From a phage, in the NCBI GenBank assembly GCA_018027755.1, contig GCA_018027755.1_4098.1: 64,000 bases of DNA; one strand, 5' to 3'. The position numbers were made by a program, and so were the translations under genes. The stretch's first letter is position 1; every line of letters begins with the position of its first letter. This document shows positions 20,510-52,468 of the stretch, in pieces. The notes below the pieces were generated by a model. That model was given only the letters and a program-made list of their open reading frames with translations. It was not told the origin of the DNA and did no database searches.

Positions 20510-20752
20510 ATGAAAGTACTGACAGAACTAGAAATGTATCATAGATTTAATAAGTACTATCATTTACTTAAGCCTATACAGAGGATTAAATGTCCATTTG
20601 AAGAGAAACAGGTTTTAATCTATGAGCACAAGTTCTTTGTATCATTAGGTACAGATCAACAAGAGTACTATTTGACGTTGTACTTGATTACATTAATAGA
20701 TTTAATTTACTATAAAACCAAACAAGCTAATAAAGAGAAATATGAAAACTAA
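20510..20752 (+). CDS. Fam-A paralog 27
   Basis: LGTDQQEYYL motif; ATG 2 nt after upstream stop (track 20477). Confidence 0.6.
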   Translation: MKVLTELEMYHRFNKYYHLLKPIQRIKCPFEEKQVLIYEHKFFVSLGTDQQEYYLTLYLITLIDLIYYKTKQANKEKYEN

Positions 20753-21086
20753 TATACAACTCAAGGTATATAAATCATTTGAACATACATATATCAAAAG
20801 TAGTCTATGTAGAGATGTAATGGATTACAAGGGTAAGCCATTCACAATTACTTATGATTCTTATGTTGATGATTTATATATATCATTTGTTAATTACGAA
20901 AATAAAATATACAAGCACGTTGATATTAAAGATTTAAGTACTTTATCTGAAGAGGAATACTTTCAGGAATCATTAGTATGGGATTTAGAGTTTCCTATGC
21001 CATTAGTACATAAGATGATAGTACTAATGAAAGAATCTAAACAGGAGCCTAATGGTGATTATGAAGAACACACAGTTGAGTATTAA
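20742..21086 (+). CDS. Fam-B paralog
   Basis: motif EEEYFQESLVWD; overlaps upstream gene. Confidence 0.65.
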   Translation: MKTNIQLKVYKSFEHTYIKSSLCRDVMDYKGKPFTITYDSYVDDLYISFVNYENKIYKHVDIKDLSTLSEEEYFQESLVWDLEFPMPLVHKMIVLMKESKQEPNGDYEEHTVEY

Positions 21087-21456
21087 AAGTACTGATAATA
21101 TTAAGAGTTATACAAGCTCAAGTACTGTGACAATCGAAGTGAATTCTATTAATGCTGGTAATGCAGTAGATAAGTTCTTTATTGCTCAAGGGTACAGGAA
21201 AGATATTCATCAATATTGTTCAGTATATGGGGAGTACAATAGTACTGAAGATATAATTTATTGGTCAACACATCAAGATTATCTAACTAAAATTGGAGTC
21301 CCAGATGTTAGTACTTTATCTGAAGAAGAATACTTTCAGTACAGCTTAATATGTGATGTACCTATACCTTTAGGGTTAATCAAGGGTATACAGGAAGAGG
21401 TTCATAAGCTTAAATCCATGAGTAAAGGTACTTTCATTAGAACAGTGCAATACTAG
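21061..21456 (+). CDS. Fam-B paralog
   Basis: motif EEEYFQYSLICD; start approximate (track 21052). Confidence 0.6.
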   Translation: MKNTQLSIKSTDNIKSYTSSSTVTIEVNSINAGNAVDKFFIAQGYRKDIHQYCSVYGEYNSTEDIIYWSTHQDYLTKIGVPDVSTLSEEEYFQYSLICDVPIPLGLIKGIQEEVHKLKSMSKGTFIRTVQY

Positions 21457-21515
21457 CTTGACAGTACTTTTCATTACTGATATAGTACACTAACGTTAAT
21501 CATAGGGTAAAAATT

Positions 21516-21761
21516 ATGTTAAATTTTTTAAATTTCCTTATCGTTTTGTGTATTGTTCTTGGGATTGCACCATTTGTATTGTATTTCATGGATTCAGATG
21601 AAATGCAGAAGATGAATTGCACAAGGACAGGACAGAGTAGAGAAGAGACGATTCTTATGCCTGTTACGGTTATTGTTAACAACATGCCCATTACAAACAT
21701 GGTCCCTACCCTAACGACAACGTACCAGTACTCTTGTGCTGACGGAGAGAGGTGGAGATGA
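21516..21761 (+). CDS. hypothetical protein with N-terminal TM helix (81 aa)
   Basis: track ORF; TTGACA-17-TATAGT promoter upstream. Confidence 0.5.
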   Translation: MLNFLNFLIVLCIVLGIAPFVLYFMDSDEMQKMNCTRTGQSREETILMPVTVIVNNMPITNMVPTLTTTYQYSCADGERWR

Positions 21762-22078
21762 AATTTAATATAGCAAAAACATCGAGTATATGTATTTTTG
21801 GTTATGCAGAAGAGTTAGGTGATATTGACATTCTTTTGTACAAAAAGGATGGTGTTATGCATTTCAAGTACCAGGATGAAGAGGCAGACAATTATCTTTT
21901 ACCTAATTTAGTACAAATGCAGGAAGAGGAATTATTCCAGTACAGCTTAGTATACGACATTGATATTTGCACGATGCCAGTACTAATTAGTATTCAAAAA
22001 GTGATGCTCGATATGTATGATAAGCTAATACAAGGTACATCAGGGAGAATCATTGAAATCGATATACAAGACAATTAA
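21752..22078 (+). CDS. Fam-B paralog
   Basis: motif EEELFQYSLVYD. Confidence 0.6.
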   Translation: MEMKFNIAKTSSICIFGYAEELGDIDILLYKKDGVMHFKYQDEEADNYLLPNLVQMQEEELFQYSLVYDIDICTMPVLISIQKVMLDMYDKLIQGTSGRIIEIDIQDN

Positions 22079-22271
22079 TCAAGAATGGAAGACCCAAAAG
22101 TACAGGGAATTCAACAGGAATTTTACAAAAGATGCATTGAATTTAAAAACAACAGAGTTTGATATGTTTATTTTTCTTGGAACACGTTCACAAGAACAAT
22201 TTGTTCATTATTATATAAATTCGTTGCGAACGGAGATAGTATGCAAAACACAGGGTATTATAAAAAGGTAA
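22053..22271 (+). CDS. Fam-A-like gene inside Fam-B array
   Basis: FLGTRSQEQFV motif; track start is TTG, start uncertain. Confidence 0.5.
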   Translation: MKSIYKTINQEWKTQKYREFNRNFTKDALNLKTTEFDMFIFLGTRSQEQFVHYYINSLRTEIVCKTQGIIKR

Positions 22272-22507
22272 ACCAATATTTGTACGCTACAAAGTACAGG
22301 GATTTTTGTTTAAAGGGTGGTGATGAAGATTTTTCTTTGCGATTATCAGAATTTAATCTGTTATTTTATCTTGGTACAAAAGAACAAGAAGAAATGGCAC
22401 AGAAATTTATCAAGCACCTTTTACAAAAAATTAATATGCAAATTTTGATGCTTAAGTTACAGAATGAGATAAATGAATATGAATCCAGAAATAGTTCAGG
22501 ATCTTAA
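22241..22507 (+). CDS. Fam-A-like gene inside Fam-B array
   Basis: YLGTKEQEEMA motif; ATG start. Confidence 0.55.
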   Translation: MQNTGYYKKVNQYLYATKYRDFCLKGGDEDFSLRLSEFNLLFYLGTKEQEEMAQKFIKHLLQKINMQILMLKLQNEINEYESRNSSGS

Positions 22508-22865
22508 AAAAGTAATATTTCTTTTGAATACCAGAAGTGAATTGTATACAGAGTTAAAAGAGATTAATGCATTTTATCAGAATTTTGTAATCCAAGAGTT
22601 CAGTGATTTAATTACAGATGCATTATTTGAATTCTCGGAGAAATACAAAGGAACAGAGTTCAGTGTTAAGAATGTTATTCGTCCAAGTACAAGGAAAATT
22701 ATATTATCACATTTTACATTTGACAATAAAGATTTATTCAGTCATAATCCAAGTACAGCTTTATATTTTATTCCTGATTCAGACAAAAATCATCCTATTC
22801 ATTACGGATGGATTTTGTCATATATAGTACAAGGAAAGGAGTATCCTATTAAATGGAAAGATTAG
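22473..22865 (+). CDS. hypothetical protein (130 aa)
   Basis: track ORF; no clear family motif. Confidence 0.5.
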   Translation: MNMNPEIVQDLKKVIFLLNTRSELYTELKEINAFYQNFVIQEFSDLITDALFEFSEKYKGTEFSVKNVIRPSTRKIILSHFTFDNKDLFSHNPSTALYFIPDSDKNHPIHYGWILSYIVQGKEYPIKWKD

Positions 22866-23013
22866 GGCGATTAGATTATTACACAATTAATACAAATTAT
22901 TTGTTGAGTAATATAAAATCCGATTACAAAATATGGATAAAGAACAGAGATAGCATGTGTTATGAATTTTATTTAGATTATGCTATCAAACGATTTTTAA
23001 GAGAAGAACATTA

Positions 23014-23217
23014 ATGCAAAAGATTAATACGATAACATTAAATGCATTACAGGATTCATTATTAGATAGTATTAAGATGTATTACAATATACATTTGAAG
23101 GGTGGTATTGATAATTACGATTATTATTTGAGTTTAATTACATTTGAGCACCTTTCAGTACAGGACAGGATTATACATCCTACAAATCCTAGGTATCCAT
23201 CGATAGGTAAATTATGA
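23014..23217 (+). CDS. hypothetical protein (67 aa)
   Basis: track ORF; ATGA overlap with next gene. Confidence 0.5.
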   Translation: MQKINTITLNALQDSLLDSIKMYYNIHLKGGIDNYDYYLSLITFEHLSVQDRIIHPTNPRYPSIGKL

Positions 23218-23762
23218 ATGAGATAGATTTATTAGCACACAAGATAAGTACAATAATGCTTATCCTCAATAACAACCATCCTATATCGCAGATAGATGGA
23301 ATCCTGAGTCAGAGGACAGGTGGTAGTTTATATTTGTCCATAAACGCAGATATCGCAAGGAAATACATTGATATTGATGTTGAAATCGAATATGATACAA
23401 CGGGGATTGTTGATGTAGGAGCATTAATCAGTTCAAATCCAGTATCAGCATCCCCATTGACCAAAGATGTTAGTACAGGATTCGAAGGATATTTGTGGTA
23501 CAATACCAATGATGATTATTTTATATATCAGCATTCCAATACAAATTATGATGAAGACAAATTTCAGTTCATAGACCCTTATGATGAAGCTGAAGTATTT
23601 CAAAAATCATTAATCACAAAACCGCATGAGATGATGTATCTAATGTTATTCAGTACAATGCATTTGAATCCATTAATTAAAGGTTTAAAATTTTATATTC
23701 AATTAAATTTAGTCCATGTAGTTTATGATTTATTAATGCAAGGATATAGTTATGAAGTATAA
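23214..23762 (+). CDS. Fam-B paralog
   Basis: motif EAEVFQKSLITK; ATGA overlap. Confidence 0.6.
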   Translation: MNEIDLLAHKISTIMLILNNNHPISQIDGILSQRTGGSLYLSINADIARKYIDIDVEIEYDTTGIVDVGALISSNPVSASPLTKDVSTGFEGYLWYNTNDDYFIYQHSNTNYDEDKFQFIDPYDEAEVFQKSLITKPHEMMYLMLFSTMHLNPLIKGLKFYIQLNLVHVVYDLLMQGYSYEV

Positions 23763-24063
23763 AATGATGTATACCCCAGATATGATTTATGTTGAATTAG
23801 AAGATGATGACGATGGGTGGAATTTGATTTATTCAAGAAGTTCAGGTTGGTACATGGCACATTTAAATGATTCGATAGTTACAGATTATTTTGTAGATTT
23901 CAATACATTATCCGATGAAGAATTGTTCCAACAGCAATTAGTGATTGACACGGGTGGTTATGATGTCTTATTATTAAAAAAGATACAAAAAGCTGTTATT
24001 GATTTTAAGCCCATGATATGGCAAAGGAAATATTATGACCTCGAAGTACCATACCAGCAATGA
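23752..24063 (+). CDS. Fam-B paralog
   Basis: motif DEELFQQQLVID. Confidence 0.6.
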   Translation: MKYKMMYTPDMIYVELEDDDDGWNLIYSRSSGWYMAHLNDSIVTDYFVDFNTLSDEELFQQQLVIDTGGYDVLLLKKIQKAVIDFKPMIWQRKYYDLEVPYQQ

Positions 24064-24601
24064 AATTCAGTACACCTACGCTAATGCAATCCTTATGGGA
24101 CAAAAGTTAGCTTGTATTGTTGCAGCCTTATATAATGCCCAGAAAGATTACAAGCGTCATATCCACAAATGTATTGGTATTATTCCATCGAAGTACAATA
24201 CATATATTGCGTGCACGAGTCATTTTGATAAACGATTCAATACACCTGATACCCCAAATGCCAGTAGTGTTATTGGTCTTTTGGATTTCGCACCTGGTGC
24301 TGTTATTGGAAAGAATGATTTAGAGTACACATGGTATAATAAAAATGCCCCGTTAGTAATGGGAAAATATGATACAGAAACGAATAAAACAATAGAGTAC
24401 AATACATATAAATCAGAGGAAGAATTTTTCCAAGGTTCATTGCTTGTACCAGTGCGTTTGTTGTTTTATAATGTCCTTATTAGTACAGTACACAATAGTC
24501 CATTACACAAGAATCACAAAATTAATTTCAATTTTTGTGCTTATGCGATTGATGGTGTGTATGAGTGTTTAATGGAGGTATTGAGTTATGAAGCTGAATA
24601 A
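24035..24601 (+). CDS. Fam-B paralog
   Basis: motif EEEFFQGSLLVP. Confidence 0.6.
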   Translation: MTSKYHTSNEIQYTYANAILMGQKLACIVAALYNAQKDYKRHIHKCIGIIPSKYNTYIACTSHFDKRFNTPDTPNASSVIGLLDFAPGAVIGKNDLEYTWYNKNAPLVMGKYDTETNKTIEYNTYKSEEEFFQGSLLVPVRLLFYNVLISTVHNSPLHKNHKINFNFCAYAIDGVYECLMEVLSYEAE

Positions 24602-24929
24602 TACATTTGATATTAATAAGTTAAGAGAATGGTTTTATAGTATTGAAATTGAAGCCATCCCGTATCATAGATATGAACAATATAATTTAACCAGTATTGA
24701 TATCCGTGAGTTGTACGCGTATTATCAAAGTGCATTAGAGATGCATAAGTTATTTTTGAGTACAGATTTTGTTATAAATTACAATTTTGAGGAATTTAAT
24801 AATTATAATTTAGTACAGAAATATGTAGTAGCAAAGTACATGTACCTTCAAGGAATTACAAGTAATTTGGAATTCAATACAGTCCTGGCTTTAGTTGAGG
24901 TAATTTTATGCAGTACATGTATGATTTAG
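24588..24929 (+). CDS. Fam-B-like paralog (divergent)
   Basis: degenerate motif ELYAYYQSALEM. Confidence 0.5.
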   Translation: MKLNNTFDINKLREWFYSIEIEAIPYHRYEQYNLTSIDIRELYAYYQSALEMHKLFLSTDFVINYNFEEFNNYNLVQKYVVAKYMYLQGITSNLEFNTVLALVEVILCSTCMI

Positions 24930-25414
24930 AGTTTAGTTTAGATGCTGCCTTTAAATTTGTTCACAAGATAGAAACAATATACAGTACATTATGTGCAATA
25001 CAATCAGTATCATCTGAGTTTGATGTTGGTGAAAAATATCAGGTATGGAATAATACATTTCTAAACAAAGAACGTTGCTCTACGGGGTTTAATATTTTAA
25101 CATTTAATCCCAGCAATTGTTACCCAGAGAAGCATGAACGTTATCCGAATGACGACATGTGGTTTGATTACACAAAAGATGGTGATATGTCATCCCTTGT
25201 AGTTCCTGATGATTTTAATGCCGAAGATTTAACGAAAGAGTGGTGGTTTCAACAGAATTTAGTACACGATGATATTGATTTATTTTTTTATGTAGTATTT
25301 AAAATGCTTTACCACAACAATATATTAAAAGATAGTGTGTTTTTTTCATGTCTATATATTGATGATTTGTACAATGAAATCCAAATCAACATGCCCAGAA
25401 CGCCTGTATCGTAA
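24908..25414 (+). CDS. Fam-B paralog
   Basis: motif KEWWFQQNLVHD. Confidence 0.6.
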   Translation: MQYMYDLEFSLDAAFKFVHKIETIYSTLCAIQSVSSEFDVGEKYQVWNNTFLNKERCSTGFNILTFNPSNCYPEKHERYPNDDMWFDYTKDGDMSSLVVPDDFNAEDLTKEWWFQQNLVHDDIDLFFYVVFKMLYHNNILKDSVFFSCLYIDDLYNEIQINMPRTPVS

Positions 25415-25439
25415 GATATGGGCTTTTTTCGTTTTGGTA

Positions 25440-25468
25440 TTGACAAAGAAGTGCAAAGCTGTTATCAT
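25440..25468 (+). promoter_or_regulatory. internal sigma70-like promoter within array
   Basis: TTGACA-17-TATCAT, then AAAGGAG SD and GTG start. Confidence 0.5.
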
Positions 25469-25496
25469 GTGTAATCATTTTAAAGGAGAACATATA

Positions 25497-26009
25497 GTGA
25501 GTTTCATAATCCCTAGTACATACGAAGATGCATCAAGTGCAGTTCATAAGATTCATTATATTTTTAATTTAATTATTAGATCTGCAAAAATTAAAATGTA
25601 TGCACCTCTTGTGACAAATAATCGAAATGAAGAAATTTTTATTAGCACAGACAAAATTATTTTTCCATATTTCAATGAAGATATATTGTGGTTCATACAT
25701 TTAGCTGCATTACAAAAATATAAAATGTCAATTCGTAATAATTTGGATATACCGTTATATCATCCTGATATTGGAGAGGATGAATATTTTCAGTACAGTA
25801 CAGTACACCGCCATGAAGATATCTTTGTTGCTATGCTTATTGCTAAATTGAACACCGTTGATTTGGAGTACCACAAATACAATAATAAATCATGTAAGAT
25901 CATAATCCCTGCATTCATAGCTCTTTATGATTATGTGGTGCATAACAAAAAAGATGATACATATGCTTTCAATGAAGAGTATTTGAATTTTTTTAAGGAG
26001 AACATATGA
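25497..26009 (+). CDS. Fam-B paralog
   Basis: motif EDEYFQYSTVHR; GTG start after AAAGGAG (track 25335). Confidence 0.55.
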   Translation: MSFIIPSTYEDASSAVHKIHYIFNLIIRSAKIKMYAPLVTNNRNEEIFISTDKIIFPYFNEDILWFIHLAALQKYKMSIRNNLDIPLYHPDIGEDEYFQYSTVHRHEDIFVAMLIAKLNTVDLEYHKYNNKSCKIIIPAFIALYDYVVHNKKDDTYAFNEEYLNFFKENI

Positions 26010-26533
26010 GCAGTGAAGTGCAGAAATCAATGACATTCAATGAAATTGGTGCATTTAAAGATAAGATCATTGATTGCATTGAATACATGATTTGTAGTAA
26101 TATCGAAAGTATCGAGATATTTAACAAGACAAATCGCTCTTACCATATGATGTACATTGCAAACAATAATGGTATCATTCCATTTATTTCGGATAGTACA
26201 ATATGGTACGCATGTGATACGAAAAAAACCACAATAGGTTTACATTCATTTGAGACACATTATGATCTAATTATTCCTGAACATTGTATGCAAGAAGAAG
26301 AATATTTTCAAATGCAATGTATACATTCACCATTAGTGTTGTTTAGTTTATATATTATACCTTATATCACCAAATGTGTTCATGAGAATAAAGCTCCGTG
26401 GAATCATGAATTTGTATCGTTGAAGTTATTGTATAATGTATTAGTAGAATATTATGATTACAGGCACAATGGTACAATCAGTGATGTATGGGATTTTGAA
26501 TCGCTAAGGGTGAAAACATACACAGGTGAATGA
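26006..26533 (+). CDS. Fam-B paralog
   Basis: motif EEEYFQMQCIHS; ATGA overlap. Confidence 0.6.
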   Translation: MSSEVQKSMTFNEIGAFKDKIIDCIEYMICSNIESIEIFNKTNRSYHMMYIANNNGIIPFISDSTIWYACDTKKTTIGLHSFETHYDLIIPEHCMQEEEYFQMQCIHSPLVLFSLYIIPYITKCVHENKAPWNHEFVSLKLLYNVLVEYYDYRHNGTISDVWDFESLRVKTYTGE

Positions 26534-26534
26534 T

Positions 26535-27149
26535 ATGACCAGAATTAAAATGTATGATTTGATGCAGTACAGTAAAATTGCCATTCCAGTGCTTAATAAA
26601 GTGCTGGATGCATTCATTGCCAAATACCCTGAGAATTCAGTGTTATGTATTCCATTTAGTGTTCCAGATAAAGATGATATATTCCAAGTGAATGTCAGTA
26701 CACGTGGTATTACATTGCAGCAGAAATATATGGATACGGAATATTATGGAATAAAGTTGGATTCAGTACAGGGTTCTAAATCAGCCTATGATTTTTTTGT
26801 TCCTAATAACATCGAGTCATGGGAAACAAACATTTCAAAGAAAGATGAAAATGATGTTCCTATTAGTGGTGTGTTCAACAATAAAGTTTTTTATTATTAC
26901 GAAACCGACAAATTCCCTGAAGAGTTATATTACAATTCAGAAATGAATGAAGATGTAGATGCATTCATGTTTCAATTATCTTTAGTACATGATATCATTG
27001 ATGTTCAAGAGTTAAGAGCAGAAATCAATTTAGCTAAAGAGTTATCGGACATGCTGCCACCGTTTAGTATGCTTTTTTGTGAAGGAGGTTATTTTTCAAA
27101 AGAAGTGTTTGAACATTTCGTAGATGTTGTAAAAGGGTTGGATATATAG
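26535..27149 (+). CDS. Fam-B paralog
   Basis: motif DAFMFQLSLVHD; first ATG (track GTG at 26526). Confidence 0.6.
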   Translation: MTRIKMYDLMQYSKIAIPVLNKVLDAFIAKYPENSVLCIPFSVPDKDDIFQVNVSTRGITLQQKYMDTEYYGIKLDSVQGSKSAYDFFVPNNIESWETNISKKDENDVPISGVFNNKVFYYYETDKFPEELYYNSEMNEDVDAFMFQLSLVHDIIDVQELRAEINLAKELSDMLPPFSMLFCEGGYFSKEVFEHFVDVVKGLDI

Positions 27150-27150
27150 T

Positions 27151-27345
27151 ATGCTTATAATTGATATTAAACAAAAATACCGTAAGTTTGATTGGTTCAC
27201 CGATAGTTTCCAGCTTGAATTATTACATATGAATATCAGTGAAACATTATGTGCAGAAACACAAGATGAATTTGATGATAGAGTGATGAACATAGTAATG
27301 CTTTCTTGCTTTAAACATTTTGGTTATTTTTTCGGACAGAATTGA
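27151..27345 (+). CDS. hypothetical protein (64 aa)
   Basis: track ORF; no clear family motif. Confidence 0.45.
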   Translation: MLIIDIKQKYRKFDWFTDSFQLELLHMNISETLCAETQDEFDDRVMNIVMLSCFKHFGYFFGQN

Positions 27346-27353
27346 GGTAAAAA

Positions 27354-27872
27354 ATGCATCAACACAAGCATCATTCATATGATTTTGCAATTAACATTAT
27401 GAAGTTTATTCGAGCGTTGGAGGATGGGAAGCTTAGTCATAAGTACACCAAAGTAGGTGACAATTGGTTCAGAAATGATGATGATGAGTTCAGAAGTCAT
27501 AAGATTGTTTACAGCAATAATTACAGTGCCAATTACCTACAAGATGTAGTGATGTGTTTTGAATACGTGTTGCAGTTCAGGGGTTCAATCCAAGATGAGT
27601 TGATGGAGAACATGTACATCCGATACCTTCCAATGCTCAAAGATGAAAATGTATTATTAAATTCAATATACCAACGAGTTCGTGAAATTGAGTGCAGGGA
27701 TATATTAGATACAGAAGAATCGTATTTCCAGCAATCCCTGATTTATGCACCTGATTTATTACAGGTACATAATTTGTTTAATACATTACGTCAGAACATC
27801 AGTACAGACATATTTTTGTCATTATCGGATTATGATACATTTGTCAAAGATTTAGAGGAAATAGGTTTATGA
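27354..27872 (+). CDS. Fam-B paralog
   Basis: motif EESYFQQSLIYA. Confidence 0.6.
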   Translation: MHQHKHHSYDFAINIMKFIRALEDGKLSHKYTKVGDNWFRNDDDEFRSHKIVYSNNYSANYLQDVVMCFEYVLQFRGSIQDELMENMYIRYLPMLKDENVLLNSIYQRVREIECRDILDTEESYFQQSLIYAPDLLQVHNLFNTLRQNISTDIFLSLSDYDTFVKDLEEIGL

Positions 27873-28213
27873 GTCGATTTTCGGTTTATATAGTAAACGT
27901 CAGTAAAGATGGTAGTTTAATTGAATTTGATGTAGTTGATAACAATGATAATTCATATGGTATTAAGGTACAGGACAATAATGTACAGTTCAGTACAAGG
28001 ACAAATTTTGAGAATCCAGTCCAAGTTCCGAATTTCATAGAAGATGAAGCTGCACGATTCCAATACGAAACGGCCTTTGATAATATGCATATGCATATTA
28101 TTATGCAACAAAGTTTAGTTCAATTGCTTCAGGTATTCAGACAAAATATATATGTACATGAAGTGTCGATTAATGGCATTCAAAGTTCCGTTTTGTTCGG
28201 TACAAATATGTAA
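27869..28213 (+). CDS. Fam-B-like paralog (divergent)
   Basis: degenerate motif EAARFQYETAFD; ATGA overlap. Confidence 0.5.
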   Translation: MSRFSVYIVNVSKDGSLIEFDVVDNNDNSYGIKVQDNNVQFSTRTNFENPVQVPNFIEDEAARFQYETAFDNMHMHIIMQQSLVQLLQVFRQNIYVHEVSINGIQSSVLFGTNM

Positions 28214-28223
28214 GGAAAGTACA

Positions 28224-28775
28224 ATGAGTTCAATGAGTTTATTAGATACATTAGAAAAAGACAGAAGTGCAATTAAGCGTTTAAAAGAGCAAGTACAAAA
28301 GATTGTATACAACGTTGATAAGTTTGAGGTTCCCGGAAGATTTGGTGATATTTCCCATACGGAGATCAAATCCCTTAAGTCAGATTTGTTGATTAAAAAT
28401 AAAAATGGGTTGATTTTAGTTTTGAGTTCAGATATGATGGGGGCAACACATAGTTATAATGCCGTATCGGTGCGTTCCGAGTGTGAAGGTATATATCTAT
28501 CACAGGGTTTCAATAGCGAGACACAGGTTTGTTTTTGTGATGCAGTACATGACCCTATGAAGTTCACGAGAAGTGAAGCCCAAGCGTTATTAGAGCTATC
28601 AGACGAGAGTTTGTTTCAGTACAGTACAATGTATGACAATGATAAGCTTCGTTGTATGTACGCTGTAAAGCATTATACACAGGAGTTTTCTGGATTTGCA
28701 TACCTTTTAGTTAGAACCAATACCAGATATATTGATATGTTAGAAGATTACATCGATAAAGTTGTTAATGTATGA
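28224..28775 (+). CDS. Fam-B paralog
   Basis: motif DESLFQYSTMYD; internal ATG (track 28152). Confidence 0.6.
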   Translation: MSSMSLLDTLEKDRSAIKRLKEQVQKIVYNVDKFEVPGRFGDISHTEIKSLKSDLLIKNKNGLILVLSSDMMGATHSYNAVSVRSECEGIYLSQGFNSETQVCFCDAVHDPMKFTRSEAQALLELSDESLFQYSTMYDNDKLRCMYAVKHYTQEFSGFAYLLVRTNTRYIDMLEDYIDKVVNV

Positions 28776-28965
28776 TGTATTATTATGTGATGGGATAATG
28801 CTGATGAAAGAGTTATTTGAAGATCAGTTCAATACATATGTGGATAATATTCTTTATTCCAGCCGTGCTAGTCAACGAGGAAATCGTGCTTACAATATTG
28901 ATTACCTATTAGTGGTGCTGAGTTCACAGTACACCTACGCTGTACAGAGGACATATTATGAATAA
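28762..28965 (+). CDS. hypothetical protein (67 aa)
   Basis: track ORF; start uncertain. Confidence 0.45.
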   Translation: MLMYDVLLCDGIMLMKELFEDQFNTYVDNILYSSRASQRGNRAYNIDYLLVVLSSQYTYAVQRTYYE

Positions 28966-30671: not shown

Positions 30672-30680
30672 GATTATAAA

Positions 30681-31175: not shown

Positions 31176-31176
31176 A

Positions 31177-41570: not shown

Positions 41571-41637
41571 GTGTTTATGGCTTTACAAGAGCATTCAGGT
41601 GTGTTATACTTGATTTTAAATAGAGTTGGAGGAATCT

Positions 41638-43778: not shown

Positions 43779-44284
43779 GTTTATTAAATGCACGCGAATT
43801 GGTTGAGATGTATGAGATTTTGTCTTCATATAAAAATTCTCATGGAGATGTGATTCTCGACAAAAAGTTCCATGTCAGTGTTGAACATATATCAAATATA
43901 GATATGATTTCTTTGGTGGAAAGTAATAAGTCAGGTCTTGAACGCGATATCATGCGTTTGATTTATATTCCCAAACCATCATATACTAATGATAGTTCAA
44001 TTAGTAATGAGACATTCATGTATAGTCCCGGTACGGATTCTACTATAGTATCGCTGTCCAATAAATCAATGGATACTTTCCAATTCATATATACCAGTAC
44101 TGATAACATTGAAGAAATTGAATTTCAAAACAATACATTAAGTCCATGTAGTAGTGTTATAACCTTTATGTCATATCTATGGTCAACTAAAACAAGTGCT
44201 GTTGTATATAGTTCAAATTATACACAAGATAGTATTGTTGAATCATATAAAGTTCTAAAGGAATACTATGAAAATAACAAATGA
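43775..44284 (+). CDS. Fam-B-like paralog (divergent)
   Basis: degenerate motif EEIEFQNNTLSP. Confidence 0.5.
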   Translation: MSLLNARELVEMYEILSSYKNSHGDVILDKKFHVSVEHISNIDMISLVESNKSGLERDIMRLIYIPKPSYTNDSSISNETFMYSPGTDSTIVSLSNKSMDTFQFIYTSTDNIEEIEFQNNTLSPCSSVITFMSYLWSTKTSAVVYSSNYTQDSIVESYKVLKEYYENNK

Positions 44285-44849
44285 TTTTATTAAAAGTGTA
44301 GTACACCCTATGCTTAGTATTATGAAAAAAATACAGAATCTACCGGAAGATAACGATTACAAGTTTAATCGTTTTGATTCAGATGTGTTTTGTATTGAAA
44401 TTGAAATTAATAACAATCGCAATTTACATTTAAAATTCAAAGAATCTTCGAGTCCGTACTACAACTTTGATATGAATTTTAAAATAGATACTGACATTGA
44501 AGAAAACATAATATCAAATCATACTAGCAAAAATGGTTTTATGCATAGAACTACTATGTACAATAATAAAAATAGTATTATATCTAAATGGAATCAACAA
44601 TTCACTAAAATTTGTGAAATTGAATATAATGATTTTGGTGAAGAGAATTACTTTCAGTTAAGTACAATTCATGAACTTCCACCGTATGATTATGTTAAAA
44701 CATGGTTTGATATTCATAATATAATTGATGATGCAATCAAACTTCCATTTGGTGTGTCAATATCATATACTGCTCCTAAAACATTTGTTTTTACTGAAGA
44801 TATGATTATGAAAAAGATATGGGCAATTATCCCACTTATGATGGATTAA
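44268..44849 (+). CDS. Fam-B paralog
   Basis: motif EENYFQLSTIHE. Confidence 0.6.
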   Translation: MKITNDFIKSVVHPMLSIMKKIQNLPEDNDYKFNRFDSDVFCIEIEINNNRNLHLKFKESSSPYYNFDMNFKIDTDIEENIISNHTSKNGFMHRTTMYNNKNSIISKWNQQFTKICEIEYNDFGEENYFQLSTIHELPPYDYVKTWFDIHNIIDDAIKLPFGVSISYTAPKTFVFTEDMIMKKIWAIIPLMMD

Positions 44850-44854
44850 ATTCG

Positions 44855-44880
44855 TACCAGGGGTTGACTCTGGTATTTTT
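44855..44880 (+). terminator. terminator-like hairpin
   Basis: stem TACCAG/CTGGTA then T-run. Confidence 0.5.
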
Positions 44881-44910
44881 GTATGATACATTGTCCTAAA
44901 GGAGAATTTT

Positions 44911-45462
44911 ATGAACTACAATCATGATCTTTTTACATTATGTGCATCCAAATGTGTTGATGGATGGACAGATAAAATCAATACCATAATTCATCGATAT
45001 CTGGTCTTTAGTTCTCGTGCACGAAGTGAGGGGGCTATGGATTTCAAATATACACTATCTATTGATGGTGTAACTATCCATGCAGACGAAGAACGTCTGA
45101 GCATTAATTTGTATGATTCCTGTGTATTTGCTATTCACCAAAAGATGGGGAAAGGATGGGGTTGTAATAACATTAACTCAAAAGCTATCTTTTGGGTTGG
45201 TCACCACCAGACAGTACTTGATCCTTCAATCAAATCTAATCTTTTATCCGATAATATGGTTTATGATTTATTGTACTCCGAAGAACAACATTTTCAGTTA
45301 AGTACATTACATGATCTGGCACAGTACGAGGATTGTTACAAAACTTTAGAACTATGCCATTCCCTTGAACTTAAAGATAAATTGATACAAGTTTACCCTT
45401 CATTCTTTCATGAAGAAGTACAAAGTACACTAGATCATATTTTATATGGATACGATAAATGA
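44911..45462 (+). CDS. Fam-B paralog
   Basis: motif EEQHFQLSTLHD; SD AAAGGAGA. Confidence 0.65.
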   Translation: MNYNHDLFTLCASKCVDGWTDKINTIIHRYLVFSSRARSEGAMDFKYTLSIDGVTIHADEERLSINLYDSCVFAIHQKMGKGWGCNNINSKAIFWVGHHQTVLDPSIKSNLLSDNMVYDLLYSEEQHFQLSTLHDLAQYEDCYKTLELCHSLELKDKLIQVYPSFFHEEVQSTLDHILYGYDK

Positions 45463-46061
45463 GAAAAAGTTATCAAGAAGCTATTGACTTAATTCGTGAA
45501 GTTATCAAGGTGGCTCCTGCTGCTATTGAGTTCAAGAAGTCCATATACAAGAAGTATGGTCCAATGTCGAGTATGTGCTTTCAAAAGAAACGTAGTGCAT
45601 ATACTACACAGTACTGGAATGATTCTATCATCCTGAGCAATGAGACTCAGCGTATTTTATCTCTAGAATCTGAACCTACTGATTACGGGGAAGGGAACAT
45701 TTGTGCACCTGATTATGATGAAATTAACTTCAACTGCGGTGATTTTGAAACAACATTATTACTTCATGAGGGTTATCCAGAAGGTGATGTATTAGCTGAG
45801 TACAATCCAAAAACTAAAATTCTCAAAAGAGGAATCCAGTTCACTATTAATAACAAAGATGATGTTCAAGCAGCACTGATGCAACTGAGTACAAGTGAAC
45901 CTATCACTATTAGTGTAGAAGAGTTATGGGGAATTATTTCAGTACTCAATGAGTGCTATAAAGTAAAATCATTGCGTAAACACAGCATTATATTACATAC
46001 CAATATGGCAAATATAAAATGTAAGCACATTCAAGAAATGGTGGTTCCAGATGGACTTTAA
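45459..46061 (+). CDS. Fam-B-like paralog (divergent)
   Basis: degenerate motif AALMQLSTSE; ATGA overlap. Confidence 0.5.
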   Translation: MRKSYQEAIDLIREVIKVAPAAIEFKKSIYKKYGPMSSMCFQKKRSAYTTQYWNDSIILSNETQRILSLESEPTDYGEGNICAPDYDEINFNCGDFETTLLLHEGYPEGDVLAEYNPKTKILKRGIQFTINNKDDVQAALMQLSTSEPITISVEELWGIISVLNECYKVKSLRKHSIILHTNMANIKCKHIQEMVVPDGL

Positions 46062-46635
46062 AGAAATTGAAAGTAAATTAAAGTACTTCAAAGATATCAA
46101 ACTTCTTTGGGAAAAGTATAAAGTTGATTACAATTTCAGTGATGATGACACTGTAAAAACAATTGAGATTAATATCAAAATCAAGTTCAAGAATAATAAT
46201 TATGGTGAAGTAACCTTAAATCATACTGGTATATCACTCAAGGACTATGATGGTTCAACACTCGCATATTTTGACTTCACACCAGAACCAGGTGAAACAC
46301 TACTTAGTGAGATAAATTCCTATGACATGGAAGTGTTCGGCGGGAATCCGTTACTGTTCCGACTTTCTGAAGATTGGAGTGAAGAATACTACACTTACAA
46401 AGATGGTGTAGTACTTGACATTAATGGTGAAGTTGTGAATGACTTGGAAGAACGCTTGTTCCAAGAATTGTGTGTTTCAAATACTTCATATGCATACAAT
46501 CATATCCTTGACATGTTTGATTTATATAGTAAAATAGATGCTGAAATGAATGCACATGGTATTCATTATCTTACAATCAACGACTATGCTCAACTTGAAA
46601 CTGTAGTGAAAGCATTGACTAAAGTACTGAAATAG
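46051..46635 (+). CDS. Fam-B paralog
   Basis: motif EERLFQELCVSN. Confidence 0.6.
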   Translation: MDFKEIESKLKYFKDIKLLWEKYKVDYNFSDDDTVKTIEINIKIKFKNNNYGEVTLNHTGISLKDYDGSTLAYFDFTPEPGETLLSEINSYDMEVFGGNPLLFRLSEDWSEEYYTYKDGVVLDINGEVVNDLEERLFQELCVSNTSYAYNHILDMFDLYSKIDAEMNAHGIHYLTINDYAQLETVVKALTKVLK

Positions 46636-46644
46636 GAATGAAAT

Positions 46645-47058
46645 ATGAAACTGTATCATGCGAGTACTGTAAAAATTGATAACTTTTATATCCCGTATGG
46701 TGGTCTTCATATGGGAGGTAAACACAGTGCTTTGGAAGCTGCATTACGCAAGCTGAGAAGCCCACTGAACGTAGTAGACGCATGTACAGTATACTTGCAT
46801 ACCTTAGAAGTTGATGTTGATAACGTGCTTCTGTGTGAAGATTTAGGCAGTGATGATGAGTGGCGTTCACTTATTGAGAATTGCACTGCTCAAGGTTATG
46901 ATGCTGTTCAGTACAAAAATGATTACGAGCCAGACAATGTTCCTAGCTTTATGATTTGGGATGCATCTAAAGTTCGCATCATTGAAGTTGATGCTATGCA
47001 TATGGATGAAGCTGAAATGATTATCGAAGATTTTCTTGATGAATATGAAGGTGTATAA
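46645..47058 (+). CDS. hypothetical protein (137 aa)
   Basis: track ORF; no family motif; higher GC than neighbours. Confidence 0.55.
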   Translation: MKLYHASTVKIDNFYIPYGGLHMGGKHSALEAALRKLRSPLNVVDACTVYLHTLEVDVDNVLLCEDLGSDDEWRSLIENCTAQGYDAVQYKNDYEPDNVPSFMIWDASKVRIIEVDAMHMDEAEMIIEDFLDEYEGV

Positions 47059-47594
47059 TGACTGACCCGATGGTAGCACTGGCACGTACTAAGTTACTAT
47101 TAAAGATTGGTGAGATTTTTACGGTTCTTCTGTCCAATAATATTGATATTACTGAGCTAGATATTAAGCAACCGTGGGAAGTGACTATGTTCTCGGCGTT
47201 CCACCGATTGTCATATAAAGGTGAAAGTGTTCTTGATTTTAACCCTAAAGCAAAATTCATAGATTATGCTGCGTTGTACAGAGAGTTGCACCGAAATATT
47301 TATTCCGGTTGTATAACCAATAACTTCAAAGAAATTAAAGTTCAAACTGCATCACATGAGTTCAATGATTTACTTTATCCAGAATTTAATCTAACGGAAG
47401 AATTACTCTTTCAGTACTCGTTAATTCTCACAAATCTCGAAACGCTAGAGTACTACAAAGAGTTAGTAGATATTTTTATGAATACACGACTTTCAAAAGA
47501 TATTGTGATATTCTGGTATACAGAGCATGTTACGGAGGAATTGCTTACTGAATTTCTTCTAAATATGACAGCTATAAAGGAGAAGTTATGTTAG
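47058..47594 (+). CDS. Fam-B paralog
   Basis: motif EELLFQYSLILT. Confidence 0.6.
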   Translation: MTDPMVALARTKLLLKIGEIFTVLLSNNIDITELDIKQPWEVTMFSAFHRLSYKGESVLDFNPKAKFIDYAALYRELHRNIYSGCITNNFKEIKVQTASHEFNDLLYPEFNLTEELLFQYSLILTNLETLEYYKELVDIFMNTRLSKDIVIFWYTEHVTEELLTEFLLNMTAIKEKLC

Positions 47595-48061
47595 ATATTT
47601 TAGGAAACATCGATACTGCAAATTATTTTATCCAGGACGCACTGTTCAATACAGTTCAACAAGGATTAGAAGTTCGTCATAACGTTTACCAAGGTGATGG
47701 TTATTTCGTTGATATTGTTGAGGCACGAAAGAATACGTTTAATGTTAACATTACAACACTGGGTAGACAGAACATTGCACGAATTTTAGTAAGTAAAGAT
47801 GAAATTGTATTGAGATACAGTGCTAAGTTTATGTTGACTTATAAGAAAAAAACTGATATGTTCAGTACTAATTTATTTGATGAGCCATTTGACCTTGAAG
47901 ATATTGAAGCTACTTTCTTTACTCAAAGTACTATGGTAAAATACACTGATGTTCAATTTTCATCAGACGTTATGTCTGAAACATTACAAATGATCAAGGT
48001 ATTATTTTATGCATTTGAGCAATTCAGAGAAGAAAGAAATAAGGTTAACAACCACAGATGA
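47588..48061 (+). CDS. Fam-B-like paralog (divergent)
   Basis: degenerate motif ATFFTQSTMV. Confidence 0.5.
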   Translation: MLDILGNIDTANYFIQDALFNTVQQGLEVRHNVYQGDGYFVDIVEARKNTFNVNITTLGRQNIARILVSKDEIVLRYSAKFMLTYKKKTDMFSTNLFDEPFDLEDIEATFFTQSTMVKYTDVQFSSDVMSETLQMIKVLFYAFEQFREERNKVNNHR

Positions 48062-48422
48062 ACTAATAGAGGCGATCACTAAGGATTCAAAATACCATAA
48101 AGGTATTCGTCTATACTTTATAGATACTGGTTCGATGGAAGGTACATACATTTATGGTTCACAATCGTTGTCTTATGATGCAATGCCAAATAAACATGTT
48201 AAAATCTTTTTAGGTTCAAGTAATAAAACTTTCTTGACAATTAATGATAACAGTGTTATTATGAATTCGTTGGGTCATGATAAGGTGGAAATTGATCTAA
48301 ACACGCTGGAGGATATTGATTTTTTTCAATACGAGTGTTTAGGTGTTGACTTACATGGCATTAGTAGCGATATGATAAAATCATTAATCAAATATTTCGA
48401 AGGTGTTCATAAATGTATCTAA
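48009..48422 (+). CDS. Fam-B paralog
   Basis: motif DIDFFQYECLGV; start uncertain, overlaps upstream gene. Confidence 0.5.
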   Translation: MHLSNSEKKEIRLTTTDELIEAITKDSKYHKGIRLYFIDTGSMEGTYIYGSQSLSYDAMPNKHVKIFLGSSNKTFLTINDNSVIMNSLGHDKVEIDLNTLEDIDFFQYECLGVDLHGISSDMIKSLIKYFEGVHKCI

Positions 48423-48910
48423 CTAAATCAATGAAAAATTCATTTGATAAAATCAAGAGTTGTCTTGATGGAGATAATATTACAAGTGTTACACAAACCG
48501 CTGACCAAATTCAAAGCAGTTCAAGTGATTGCACTGTTATTTTTGGTTTACATAGTCTGCGTTTATCAATAGTAAATAATATTGACAACACTGCTATTGT
48601 AATCACACCATGCAATATTCAAAATGAGAATGGTGTATATCTTCATCACATGGGAACAGTATTTCACATTTTCAATTCAAACGAAAACATTGTTAAGGAA
48701 TACAATACTCTTAATATTGATTCAGGTGAATTATTTCAAATGAGTACTTTGTACTCATGTAATTTTACAGATACTTCATGTATTTTGCCATTTTTCTTGG
48801 AAATTATTAAGAAAATGGAAAATTTAAAACGTGAATACAATAAAGAAATGGTTCCTGAAGCTATATTAAATATTACTAATGCTATAGAGAAGTATAATGC
48901 AGTGACTTAA
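48413..48910 (+). CDS. Fam-B paralog
   Basis: motif SGELFQMSTLYS. Confidence 0.6.
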   Translation: MYLTKSMKNSFDKIKSCLDGDNITSVTQTADQIQSSSSDCTVIFGLHSLRLSIVNNIDNTAIVITPCNIQNENGVYLHHMGTVFHIFNSNENIVKEYNTLNIDSGELFQMSTLYSCNFTDTSCILPFFLEIIKKMENLKREYNKEMVPEAILNITNAIEKYNAVT

Positions 48911-50748: not shown

Positions 50749-50819
50749 TGAAAATAATGTGAACATATTAGATTCTTGTGATATAATGTTCACATCTTTT
50801 TTTGATAACGGAGATATAG

Positions 50820-51206
50820 ATGAATACAAGTTCAATCCTAAAAGCAATTGGTGGTGTTTTACTCATTGAAGTAAAAGGTGAGCCAAAGCTATGCTGTTTA
50901 GAAGATATGAAGAATACAAAACACTTCAGTACTGGTCAGATTTTCAATGCCATTCGTATTCTAAATGACAAATCCATTGCTGATTATGGAAAAGTTTGGC
51001 CTGTATATCAAAATGCTGATGGTGATATCAGTACTGATTGGAAAACAATTGAGGCGGTACGACAAAGTTGTGAGAGTGATTGGGACTTCATTGTTGAAGT
51101 TTGTGATCAACTACAAGAAGATGTTCCAGAAATTGTTGAACGAAAAGAAGTTCTAGCACGACTTGAAAAATTCCGTCACGGAACACTACAGTATGACACA
51201 ATCTAA
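50820..51206 (+). CDS. hypothetical protein (128 aa)
   Basis: track ORF; extended -10 promoter TGaTATAAT upstream. Confidence 0.6.
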   Translation: MNTSSILKAIGGVLLIEVKGEPKLCCLEDMKNTKHFSTGQIFNAIRILNDKSIADYGKVWPVYQNADGDISTDWKTIEAVRQSCESDWDFIVEVCDQLQEDVPEIVERKEVLARLEKFRHGTLQYDTI

Positions 51207-51255
51207 TCTGCTTATTAAAAATATCTAATTAACATTATATAAAAGGAATTTAAAA

Positions 51256-51561
51256 ATGGAAGACAATGGAATGAAATTTGATATGTTTGAAGGTGTACCA
51301 GAGTTCGATTTCAACAAACTTGAAGAAGGTGAGGAATCAGAACTAGTTAGTGTTACACTTAAAGCAGATTCTAAAAAGAAATATTCATCATCAGTACGTT
51401 CACGTTCACAAGAAGAATACGAAACATTTATTGAAAGTATTCATTATGAAACATTCCATCACGCAGATGGAACTCCATATGAAGTACGTGTAACAGTACT
51501 GAAGCCTGAAGTAAATCCAATGGAAAATCTACGTCCTGTTTACTGCTGGGCAAGTCACTAA
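51256..51561 (+). CDS. hypothetical acidic protein (101 aa)
   Basis: track ORF; SD AAAGGAA. Confidence 0.6.
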   Translation: MEDNGMKFDMFEGVPEFDFNKLEEGEESELVSVTLKADSKKKYSSSVRSRSQEEYETFIESIHYETFHHADGTPYEVRVTVLKPEVNPMENLRPVYCWASH

Positions 51562-51570
51562 TAAACCAAA

Positions 51571-51601
51571 GGACGGGATTTGTTATCTCGTCCTTTTTTT
51601 T
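51571..51601 (+). terminator. rho-independent terminator
   Basis: stem GGACGGGAT/ATCTCGTCC then 8-nt T-run. Confidence 0.8.
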
Positions 51602-51613
51602 GTCTGGAGATGT

Positions 51614-52468
51614 ATGAAACTTTATCTAATCGTTGACTACAATAAGGATTATGCTGGTAACTTCACCGAAGATTCGGATGGATATTGCACATCGACTAAT
51701 GTCAATGTACGTAGCAGTAGTGCTCATGAACATGAATCTTGTAAAAATCTAAAAGATTTTATCGCATACCGAGCATTTGAAAAGAACTTCTGCCGCAGTA
51801 GATATTCGAAGTTTGAGTACCCGTTAATTGATGTTCCTGATGATTTAATGTTCCAGTTAATGCTGACTGGAGTTCAAGATTATGATTACATAGCGTATAA
51901 TCATATTACTAAGAAAATTTATATTGGTACATCATCACATGACACTTCTATGTATGCATCATGCCCAGATGATCGAATGAATGATAGAAAATCATACTAT
52001 AGTGGGTCAGTTGGTTTAAATGATTCATTAAATAAAAATTCATTCTTTGAGTATGTTTATGATTACCATCATGAGAAAAAAGAACGTGAAGATTACTGTA
52101 TAGCAATTGATAGTACTAATGGTTATGAAGACGTGAAAGAAGCACTTATGCCGTACATTATTGAAAAGTACTACAAAGATTTTCAGTACTGTAGTAATTT
52201 TCTAATCAGAAATTCTATTATAATCGGTCGCCAATCTAGTGCATACTCTCAGTACTATAATGATTCACCAGTAGCATCGGCAAATGAAATGTGTGATATT
52301 TTACAAATTCCACGTGAAGATATGGCATTCATTTTTACATCTTTTATTGAAGATGATGAGTTGTATATTAAAAATAAACACCGTTTCATGCCAAGCAAGA
52401 TTGAGGTTATTCGAAGTTTTAGTGTTGATATACTAACAAATTTCACAGAAAAAACCGAATATAACTGA
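51614..52468 (+). CDS. hypothetical protein (284 aa), possible divergent Fam-B
   Basis: track ORF; N-terminal region DLMFQLMLTG. Confidence 0.55.
   Translation: MKLYLIVDYNKDYAGNFTEDSDGYCTSTNVNVRSSSAHEHESCKNLKDFIAYRAFEKNFCRSRYSKFEYPLIDVPDDLMFQLMLTGVQDYDYIAYNHITKKIYIGTSSHDTSMYASCPDDRMNDRKSYYSGSVGLNDSLNKNSFFEYVYDYHHEKKEREDYCIAIDSTNGYEDVKEALMPYIIEKYYKDFQYCSNFLIRNSIIIGRQSSAYSQYYNDSPVASANEMCDILQIPREDMAFIFTSFIEDDELYIKNKHRFMPSKIEVIRSFSVDILTNFTEKTEYN

Follow-up and report, generated by a model that had tools for sequence, protein, structure and literature searches.

Why would a bacteriophage carry some forty diverged copies of one small protein domain side by side, and what might these proteins do? 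The question is raised by contig GCA_018027755.1_4098.1 (assembly GCA_018027755.1), a stretch of 64,000 nucleotides that is called the window throughout, in which a family of + strand genes, named here Fam-B, forms a long tandem array. An original prediction, made without database searches, had placed at least 47 paralogs of this family at 20742-52468, with an invariant core, and had proposed that they constitute a diversified arsenal. After computational analysis of the locus, the descriptive part of the answer can be given with high confidence: Fam-B is one homologous family of about 40 acidic, single-domain, non-virion proteins, kept under selection, with an unmatched fold, shared with Klebsiella phage RaK2 and still turning over. 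The function of these proteins can be argued with less certainty.

On nucleotide identity, the window comes from an Asteriusvirus, one of the RaK2-like jumbo myoviruses (~350 kb), with Escherichia coli as host. It is so assigned because megablast with window positions 30,000-40,000 finds Escherichia phage vB_EcoM_phAPEC6 (phAPEC6) at 98.7% identity over the full length of the query; G17, Sharanji, SHEFM2K and 121Q follow at 97-98.6%. The region has a guanine-cytosine content of 30-35%, nearly all genes lie on the + strand, and the counterpart of the Fam-B region in phAPEC6 is gp466c-gp404c, every one of them annotated as 'hypothetical protein'.

One family in a tightly packed array

The strict pattern E[ED]..[FY]Q.[ST] is found 20 times in the + strand frames and never in the three reverse frames, against 0.06 ± 0.23 matches expected when the residues of these proteins are shuffled 500 times; a looser core, FQ.[ST][LTVIC][VILM], gives 34 matches against 0.30 expected from shuffles. 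A hidden Markov model (HMM) of the core, covering the motif and the 40 residues after it, settles on 38 members at E<0.01 when iterated over the proteins of the window, with ~0.1 per shuffled proteome. When a full-length HMM is iterated at an inclusion threshold of E<0.001 with orthologs from UE-S1 and RaK2 and with database representatives, it collects 41 members, 40 of them in 20,742-48,910 and one outlier at 61,731-62,309, and shuffled controls give 0. Thus, a large family of + strand genes in tandem, with the core E-E-x-[YF/L]-F-Q-x-S, is real, and its motif is significant against shuffled controls (0-0.1 per shuffled proteome against 38-41 members). Fam-B is one homologous family that has reached ~40-50 copies by tandem duplication and covers ~28 kb, or ~8% of the genome.

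Its extent had been overstated in several respects. Instead of at least 47 genes there are 40 robust members in the array, besides ~10 more genes, mostly in 41.6-48.4 kb, with a degenerate motif (e.g. AFIFQKSLLD, ERLFQELCVS, EIEFQNNTLS) that is seen by eye only; the iterated HMMs, also those built with RaK2 and UE-S1 orthologs, do not recruit these genes, which stay candidates, several of those in 41626..48422 being collinear with RaK2 open reading frames (ORFs). In the array, robust members run no further than 48,910, short of the predicted 52,468, since the six genes of 48,953-52,468, which include both 284-amino-acid (aa) proteins and make up the last 3.5 kb of the predicted range, are not members by any test. 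The robust members measure 103-224 aa with longest-ORF starts, and up to ~207 aa with corrected starts, rather than up to 285 aa; the longest ORF, 25335..26009, probably has its true start near 25,497, past the terminator and promoter of the intergenic gap. Nor is the array composed purely of Fam-B: the 67 + strand genes that lie in 20,742-49,426 include four of a second family, Fam-A (Table 1), and ~13 that fall in neither family. The packing by overlaps of 1-4 nucleotides (nt) holds for 19 of the 66 gene junctions (1 or 4 nt), but another 25 overlap by 7-53 nt with the start calls used here, and intergenic gaps of >40 nt are few.

As had been suspected, the family is not a recognised one, and neither profile nor structure searches place it in a well-characterised family. 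Ten members gave nothing above the Pfam cut-off (best 14.5 bits vs 28.9), members come nowhere near the NCBIfam cut-offs, the defence-system models of PADLOC do not match Fam-B, and profile searches of PDB sequences return nothing. PHROGs does hold full-length matches, with E 1e-49 to 1e-135, to phrog_9317, 12674, 13866, 15629, 19795, 30978, 35776, 38467, 34636 and 35972; all of these groups are labelled 'unknown function', so membership is uninformative on function, and the family is split there over at least 10 groups that match each other weakly, with no group uniting it. Foldseek against BFVD matches only uncharacterised proteins of 121Q, SP27, RaK2, GAP32, Serratia phage BF and Yersinia phages fHe-Yen9-03/04. 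The breadth of the family was taken from an exhaustive search with the core profile, in which 1.84 billion representatives yielded 102 clusters (50% identity) whose motif lies in the C-terminal third; a homolog search with the core alignment gave just 13 close orthologs of its first sequence. All clusters measure 49-202 aa except one of 348 aa, and ~60 of the 102 are <50% identical to any window protein. In tblastn, one member found 36 phage records, all of Escherichia or Salmonella jumbo phages.

One database protein, P0010 (87 aa), is 87% identical to the product of 20742-21086 and was deposited as 'Actinomadura adrarensis' on a 1,057-bp contig, which is almost certainly coliphage contamination of that assembly. 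The DUF2283 label that one source gives to P0010 was rejected (13.9 bits vs a cut-off of 23).

In the literature searched, no description of the Fam-B family, its motif, fold, distribution, context or expression was found. Tandem paralog arrays in these genomes are the subject of single-sentence remarks (PMC5646251, PMC7247149, PMC3622015). Those on 121Q and phAPEC6 concern the same genomes and the same tandem duplication, without a family definition, motif, structure or distribution, and their wording 'very similar' suits the 30-member Fam-A array better than Fam-B, whose members are ~20% identical.

The motif and the predicted fold

Over 112 database sequences the consensus of the motif is L-[ST]-E-E-E-[YL]-F-Q-x-S-[LT]-[VI]-[YWH]-D. 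The description of the core as invariant is right for F and Q, which are the only invariant columns among the window members (38/38) and are kept in 112/113 database sequences, but not for E-E, present in about 80-90% of sequences. In the 38 members Phe is encoded by TTT 22 times and by TTC 16 times, Gln by CAA 15 times and by CAG 23 times, and for Ser at +2 both TCN and AGY codons are used, which lie two nucleotide changes apart. Since synonymous positions and both Ser codon families vary freely, conservation acts at the protein level, and a DNA-level signal (a recombination or binding site) behind the motif was rejected.

The AlphaFold2 model of the product of 30681-31175, made with an alignment of 14 paralogs, has a predicted local distance difference test (pLDDT) score of 90 and a predicted template modelling (pTM) score of 0.84. 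Along the chain it has a helix (3-22), a six-strand β-meander (35-102), a short helix (104-108) and the motif helix (114-121, E-E-Y-Y-F-Q-Q-S), which is followed by the four-residue turn T-V-Y-D, a helix (126-140), a strand (146-149) and a last helix (150-159); the 10-residue blocks holding the motif are those of highest confidence (pLDDT 96-97). The model of the short-type protein of 36117-36479 is weaker (pLDDT 70), with its confidence peak at the motif (94 in block 61-70), and in it β-meander, motif helix, second helix and closing strand follow one another as in the first model. Moreover, the short and long subfamilies are homologous according to hhalign (94%, E 1.3e-7) across the final β-strands, the motif and the helix behind it, and Foldseek aligns whole models to RaK2 and GAP32 proteins.

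According to these models, each member is a single α/β domain formed by a variable antiparallel β-meander, the motif helix, a tight turn, a longer hydrophobic helix and a closing β-strand, to which the long subfamily is predicted to add an N-terminal and a C-terminal helix. The motif is modelled as part of this conserved fold (in the model with pLDDT 90), neither a linker nor an appended tag. The N-terminal two thirds, which had been described as unalignable, are so across subfamilies at the level of sequence, but the hhalign and whole-model Foldseek alignments identify them as the divergent part of the same domain. From the residue pattern we infer that the motif is a folding core: an S/T serves as N-cap, acidic residues stand in the first turn, Y/L and F are buried, and S...D forms a further cap from which the next helix starts. 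The β-clamp-binding motif QL[SD]LF resembles Q-x-S-L-V; in Fam-B the second position varies, and the segment is an internal helix of the fold rather than a disordered tail.

The TEV/NIa protease of tobacco etch virus (TEV) recognises the site E-N-L-Y-F-Q↓S/G. If the Fam-B motif were a processing or targeting tag, it would be cleaved after Q in the manner of TEV or would direct the proteins into the capsid or the inner body, which 121Q and phAPEC6 possess; packaged proteins of this sort were among the functions first proposed. E-x-x-Y-x-Q occurs in ~40% of family sequences, with Y at -2 in 48/112, E-x-x-Y-F-Q in many members, and EEGYFQGS and EEMYFQGS as full matches. The Fam-B segment is, however, modelled as a buried helix with pLDDT >90 inside a compact domain, and the region after Q is a conserved part of the same fold. 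The +1 position (P1') is Y, E, L, Q or N in 94/112 sequences and usually neither G (6 sequences) nor S, L stands at -2 in 31/112, and no 3C/NIa-like protease turned up, although no search was aimed at one. Besides, electrospray ionisation tandem mass spectrometry of the phAPEC6 virion listed 62 proteins, with nothing between gp347 and gp549 and hence nothing from gp404c-gp466c (PMC7247149); this is one published data set, in which small or processed proteins could be missed. The absence from the virion and the well-packed helix of the models make a tag highly improbable, and we think that the match to the TEV site is most likely a coincidence.

Age, turnover and selection

RaK2 gp116 (= K64-1 gp546) carries the motif as a divergent representative. 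In RaK2 the locus is syntenic with the window: an array of ORFs of 100-200 aa, with 29 robust members (TEE-x-YFQ-x-ST-x-Y), ends just before the same dam methyltransferase and cytidylyltransferase genes. From ~39.9 kb on, the genes of the window and of RaK2 are reciprocal best matches, collinear gene for gene; in this distal half the family members are 22-40% identical to RaK2, while most of the non-family genes embedded in it or flanking it reach 50-64%. For members of the proximal half, the closest sequences come from the same genome (quintet at 30,681-33,005; triplet at 29,441-30,671). Copy number is ~41 in phAPEC6, 37 in UE-S1 and 29 in RaK2, and in UE-S1 two window members are missing and a third is replaced. 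By sequence comparison, then, the family is older than the split between Asteriusvirus and Alcyoneusvirus, and birth-and-death evolution has left it with one half that is old and collinear and another that expanded recently. The expansion had been called lineage-specific, which suits the proximal half; since RaK2 has the family in the same syntenic slot, the family as such is not simply lineage-specific.

Selection was measured against UE-S1 (locus L003, ~92% nucleotide identity) as ω, the ratio dN/dS of nonsynonymous to synonymous substitution rates, by the Nei-Gojobori method for 34-36 members. Pooled Fam-B gives 0.25, compared with 0.20 for other genes inside the array, 0.175 for flanking genes and 0.38 for Fam-A; within Fam-B the values are 0.27 for the N-terminal part, 0.12 for the motif (-7 to +6) and 0.23 for the C-terminal part. 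The Fam-B genes are clearly under purifying selection as judged from these ratios. For the recent paralogs, at 35-57% identity, dS is saturated.

These values bear on the idea that the array is neutral filler, tandem duplicates that fill an enlarged capsid in the manner of the ratchet of Hua et al. 2017 (PMC5646251). Both Hua et al. and Wagemans et al. cite the tandem arrays of 121Q and phAPEC6 as genome growth by duplication. All 34-36 Fam-B orthologs in UE-S1 are, however, uninterrupted ORFs, the motif persists between genera whose members share 20-30% overall identity, and the RaK2 synteny is conserved. With ω well below 1 overall and lowest at the motif, neutral filler is largely refuted, and we consider it very unlikely.

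The same contrast between motif and N-terminal part could also be read as docking to a common partner. The invariant helix (E-E...F-Q...S...D) would then be a shared interaction or active site for a machine of host or phage origin, e.g. a protease, RNA polymerase or a phage hub, and the members would be adaptors whose variable β-sheet selects the cargo. The motif is conserved above the rest of the fold in F-Q, in E-E and in its ω, and sequence variation is concentrated in the N-terminal β-region. On the other hand, the pattern is as expected of a helix cap and hydrophobic core, the motif is the best-packed part of both models, and no candidate partner was identified, so that we regard common docking as unlikely. 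A particular version, in which the acidic helix docks to one machine and the hypervariable β-sheet picks host proteins, would turn the array into ~40 substrate adaptors delivering host factors, including defence proteins, to degradation or sequestration; it seems rather doubtful to us. Its counterparts would be the F-box, BTB and ankyrin adaptor families of large eukaryotic viruses, and the fold that carries it would be without known relatives.

Genome position and expression context

In the linear G17 record (370,817 bp) the same sequence stands at both ends, and base 1 falls on window position 14,773; window 1-14,773 is therefore the inner part of a terminal repeat. The authors of G17 reported terminal redundancies of ~20 kb from coverage (PMC6563267), and for Sharanji a direct terminal repeat of 20,668 bp is given (PMC11895373). 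Window 1-14,773 contains small genes, most with their own promoter upstream, and 10 perfect TTGACA-16/17-TATAAT promoters plus 7 with 11/12 matches, all on the + strand; promoter-like sites number 79 there, against 48 ± 8 expected. The Fam-A array begins 72 bp past the repeat boundary and the Fam-B array lies directly behind it, ~6 kb downstream of the repeat, with all genes reading away from the repeat.

An element of ~38 nt, AAAGGGATTGAC(A/T)CCGGTCAGTCCCTTTGCTATTATAT, recurs at 3588-3625, 7266-7303, 10533-10570 and 13289-13326, with a variant at 44854-44893; it forms a hairpin with a 12-bp stem that carries a TTGAC -35 box in its 5' arm and is followed by a TATTAT -10 box, apparently a joint terminator-promoter unit that recurs between early genes. 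In the Sharanji record OR545507.1, window position 30,000 maps to both 72 and 349,545, and ~600 bp (window ~29466-30071) seems to be duplicated at the two ends, probably as a circularisation overlap; the start of that record is not the physical genome end.

Within the Fam-B array promoter- and terminator-like sites are few, as first described, and sit at the rare intergenic gaps. By pattern matching, the array is cut into at least five putative operons by σ70-type promoters with extended -10 elements. In the related phage PA5oct, RNA sequencing placed the terminal-repeat genes in the early class and the phage depends on host RNA polymerase (PMC7318152); by analogy, Fam-B is probably transcribed early by host RNA polymerase. 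With a median pI of 4.95 and a net charge as low as -26, the proteins are acidic, and no transmembrane segments were seen in them.

Position and content of the array also bear on a phage-internal function, by which the members would be regulators, chaperones or accessory factors of assembly or replication for the phage's own development. Every member is under purifying selection and the distal half is kept gene for gene between genera, as would suit such roles. Forty-fold redundancy, differences in copy number among close relatives and very fast divergence would, however, be unusual for core functions; moreover, the proteins are not found in virions and the genes lie at the early small-gene end, away from the replication and morphogenesis modules. 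We think that phage-internal roles are improbable as an explanation of the whole family.

A possible function and its analogies

In our opinion, the reading that best accommodates these data, at a probability of about 0.5, is that of an ancient, still-expanding family of early cytoplasmic proteins that act as host-takeover or anti-defence binders, with variable surfaces on a constant scaffold. Host RNA polymerase would transcribe the genes early in infection, the constant scaffold would present a different surface in each member, and the members might each bind and neutralise another host protein or another variant of a defence, in which case the array would be a broad host-takeover or anti-defence repertoire. 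Fast divergence relative to the neighbouring genes, variation in copy number, σ70-type promoters, position, and acidity and solubility together give a context that fits a diversified early arsenal. Of the arsenal first proposed in place of housekeeping genes, the very large expansion and the early-like context are borne out, but the host-takeover or anti-defence function itself remains conjectural.

Several points weigh against this reading. Both 'early' and 'binder' are inferred, and an ω of 0.25 means constraint, not an arms race. The retention of the collinear half since the split from RaK2 could mean fixed, phage-internal roles. σ70-like hexamers are not enriched in the AT-rich array (91 found vs 111 expected; 127 vs 126), and therefore only the placement of the sites in gaps counts as evidence. 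Burial of F and exposure of E-E are deduced from the sequence pattern and pLDDT only, and the invariance of F-Q and near-invariance of E-E exceed what structure alone would require, so that the motif may also be a shared functional site.

Large eukaryotic DNA viruses offer an analogy, since their terminal multigene families include MGF360/505 of African swine fever virus (ASFV) and the ankyrin, BCL-2-like and K3L 'genomic accordions' of poxviruses. Like Fam-B, these consist of dozens of tandem, diverged paralogs near a genome end, with birth-and-death evolution, copy number varying between strains and non-structural products; neither in sequence nor in fold are they related to Fam-B, whose host is bacterial, and the analogy is one of organisation only. 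Among phages, early blocks at genome ends are exemplified by the host-takeover module in the terminal redundancy of SPO1 and the pre-early genes of T5. These blocks and that of PA5oct (PMC7318152) resemble the Fam-B region in having many small genes of unknown function at or near a long terminal repeat, host-type promoters and inward transcription, but their genes are unrelated, whereas Fam-B consists of ~40 copies of one fold and lies outside the repeat behind Fam-A. By kind, Fam-B fits best among the viral terminal multigene families or the early accessory gene blocks.

Neighbouring families and features

Fam-A comprises 30 proteins of 52-92 aa, at 14845-20752 and as four copies inside the Fam-B array, with an invariant-like core h-L-G-T-N-Y-Q-E-x-Y and a basic character (median pI 8.7). 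Both families have a [YF]-Q core followed by a helix; homology between them was rejected (hhalign probability 0.2%). A third paralog family, Fam-C, was clustered by BLASTP from at least 5 adjacent proteins of 88-103 aa at 56759-58904 (possibly also 61095-61723); neighbouring genes of similar size share similar C-terminal patterns, with no Pfam match.

Two non-family genes are conserved far more strongly than the genes around them. The one at 46645-47058, inside the array, is 100% identical to UE-S1 (dS 0) and 60% identical to RaK2, and the one at 48953-49426, adjoining the array, is 64% identical to RaK2 with ω 0.01; neither gave a family match. Beyond the array, ~600 nt at 52468-53071 lack a convincing ORF and start with a promoter-like TG-TATAAT and a hairpin; an Rfam scan of the whole window gave no matches, there included, and the segment could hold a non-coding RNA or a regulatory region. 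Further on, the dam methyltransferase (53708-54229) and the cytidylyltransferase (55008-55541) enclose a 261-aa ORF (54226-55011) with a CapR homology/DUF723 domain (E 1e-16) that resembles a homing endonuclease. In phAPEC6 and RaK2 the two enclosing genes adjoin each other, so that the ORF looks like a mobile insertion confined to the lineage of this isolate.

Table 1. Coordinates of Fam-B members, candidates, Fam-A copies and control elements in the window
Feature	Position	Strand	Basis
Fam-B array overall, 40 robust members among 67 packed genes	20742..48910	+	iterated HMMs, shuffle controls, gene chain
Fam-B, short type, 114 aa, LSEEEYFQESLVWD	20742..21086	+	HMM E 3.8e-14
Fam-B, 134 aa, LSEEEYFQYSLICD; UE-S1 without ortholog	21052..21456	+	core HMM
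Fam-B, 108 aa, MQEEELFQYSLVYD	21752..22078	+	core HMM
Fam-B, 182 aa, DEAEVFQKSLIT	23214..23762	+	core HMM
Fam-B, 103 aa, LSDEELFQQQLVID	23752..24063	+	core HMM
Fam-B, 188 aa, SEEEFFQGSLLV; missing in UE-S1	24035..24601	+	core HMM
Fam-B, 168 aa, LTKEWWFQQNLVHD	24908..25414	+	core HMM
Fam-B, GEDEYFQYSTVH; longest ORF 224 aa	25335..26009	+	core HMM
Fam-B, 175 aa, MQEEEYFQMQCIH	26006..26533	+	core HMM
Fam-B, divergent, 207 aa, AFMFQLSLVHD	26526..27149	+	full-length HMM E 1.3e-8
Fam-B, 172 aa, DTEESYFQQSLIY	27354..27872	+	core HMM
Fam-B, divergent, 114 aa, AARFQYETAFD	27869..28213	+	full-length HMM E 5.7e-7
Fam-B, 207 aa, LSDESLFQYSTMYD	28152..28775	+	core HMM
Fam-B recent triplet, LDDAALFQEALVFDKKY type: 29441-29959, 29956-30315, 30312-30671	29441..30671	+	mutual best matches, 38-39% identity
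Fam-B recent quintet, SEEYYFQQSTVYD type: 30681-31175, 31177-31647, 31644-32087, 32087-32575, 32553-33005	30681..33005	+	up to 57% mutual identity
Fam-B, 104 aa, HESFIFQESLVWD	33002..33316	+	core HMM
Fam-B, 149 aa, STEEGYFQGSTVYE	33621..34070	+	core HMM
Fam-B, 186 aa, NTEENIFQNSVLHD	34958..35518	+	core HMM
Fam-B, four members: 36117-36479 (short type, modelled), 36403-36846, 36825-37166, 37126-37710	36117..37710	+	core HMM
Fam-B, five members after the perfect σ70 promoter: 37770-38246, 38243-38737, 38703-39065, 39049-39462, 39450-39953	37770..39953	+	core HMM
Fam-B, two members: 40476-41039 (collinear with RaK2 ORF424), 40984-41550	40476..41550	+	core HMM
Fam-B, 192 aa, VEEELFQMSTVIP	42772..43350	+	core HMM
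Fam-B, two members: 44268-44849, 44911-45462	44268..45462	+	core HMM
Fam-B, 178 aa, LTEELLFQYSLIL; collinear with RaK2 ORF436	47058..47594	+	core HMM
Last robust Fam-B member, 165 aa, SGELFQMSTLY; collinear with RaK2 ORF439	48413..48910	+	core HMM
Outlying Fam-B member, 192 aa, PEHFQISTLYD, 13 kb downstream of the array	61731..62309	+	full-length HMM E 1.6e-8
Candidate divergent genes (unproven)	41626-42204 (LMFNANLLYD), 42201-42785 (AFIFQKSLLD), 43350-43778, 43775-44284 (EIEFQNNTLS)	+	translations only
Candidate divergent genes (unproven)	45459-46061, 46051-46635 (ERLFQELCVS), 47588-48061, 48009-48422 (DIDFFQYECLG)	+	translations only
Two further candidates upstream	27151-27345, 34067-34603	+	translations only
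Fam-A interspersed copies	22053-22271, 22241-22507, 34581-34799, 34777-34968	+	
σ70-type promoter TTGACA-17-TATAGT with TG, intergenic gap	21458..21486	+	
Terminator hairpin with T-run, then promoter TTGACA-17-TATCAT with TG (at 25,440)	25402..25468	+	
Perfect σ70 promoter TTGACA-18-TATAAT, 12/12, with extended -10 TG	37707..37736	+	
Terminator hairpin, then promoter TTTACA-17-TATACT with TG (at 41,582)	41549..41610	+	
Terminator-like hairpin with embedded TTGACT box, gap before 44911; promoter match at 44,866	44854..44876	+	
Boundary of the ~20-kb direct terminal repeat	14773	.	G17 base 1 maps here; PMC6563267

Significance

About 8% of a 350-kb genome is spent on ~40 copies of one uncharacterised domain, and the copies are kept under selection in at least two genera of jumbo phages that are in development for therapy against E. 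coli, Salmonella and Klebsiella. The definition of the family by motif, profile, model, syntenic position and member list makes its function directly testable. For the growth of jumbo genomes, tandem duplication has here given constrained, diversifying genes and not filler. If the proteins are binders, the array would be a natural library of inhibitors on a common, compact and apparently new scaffold, and it could determine the broad host range of these phages.

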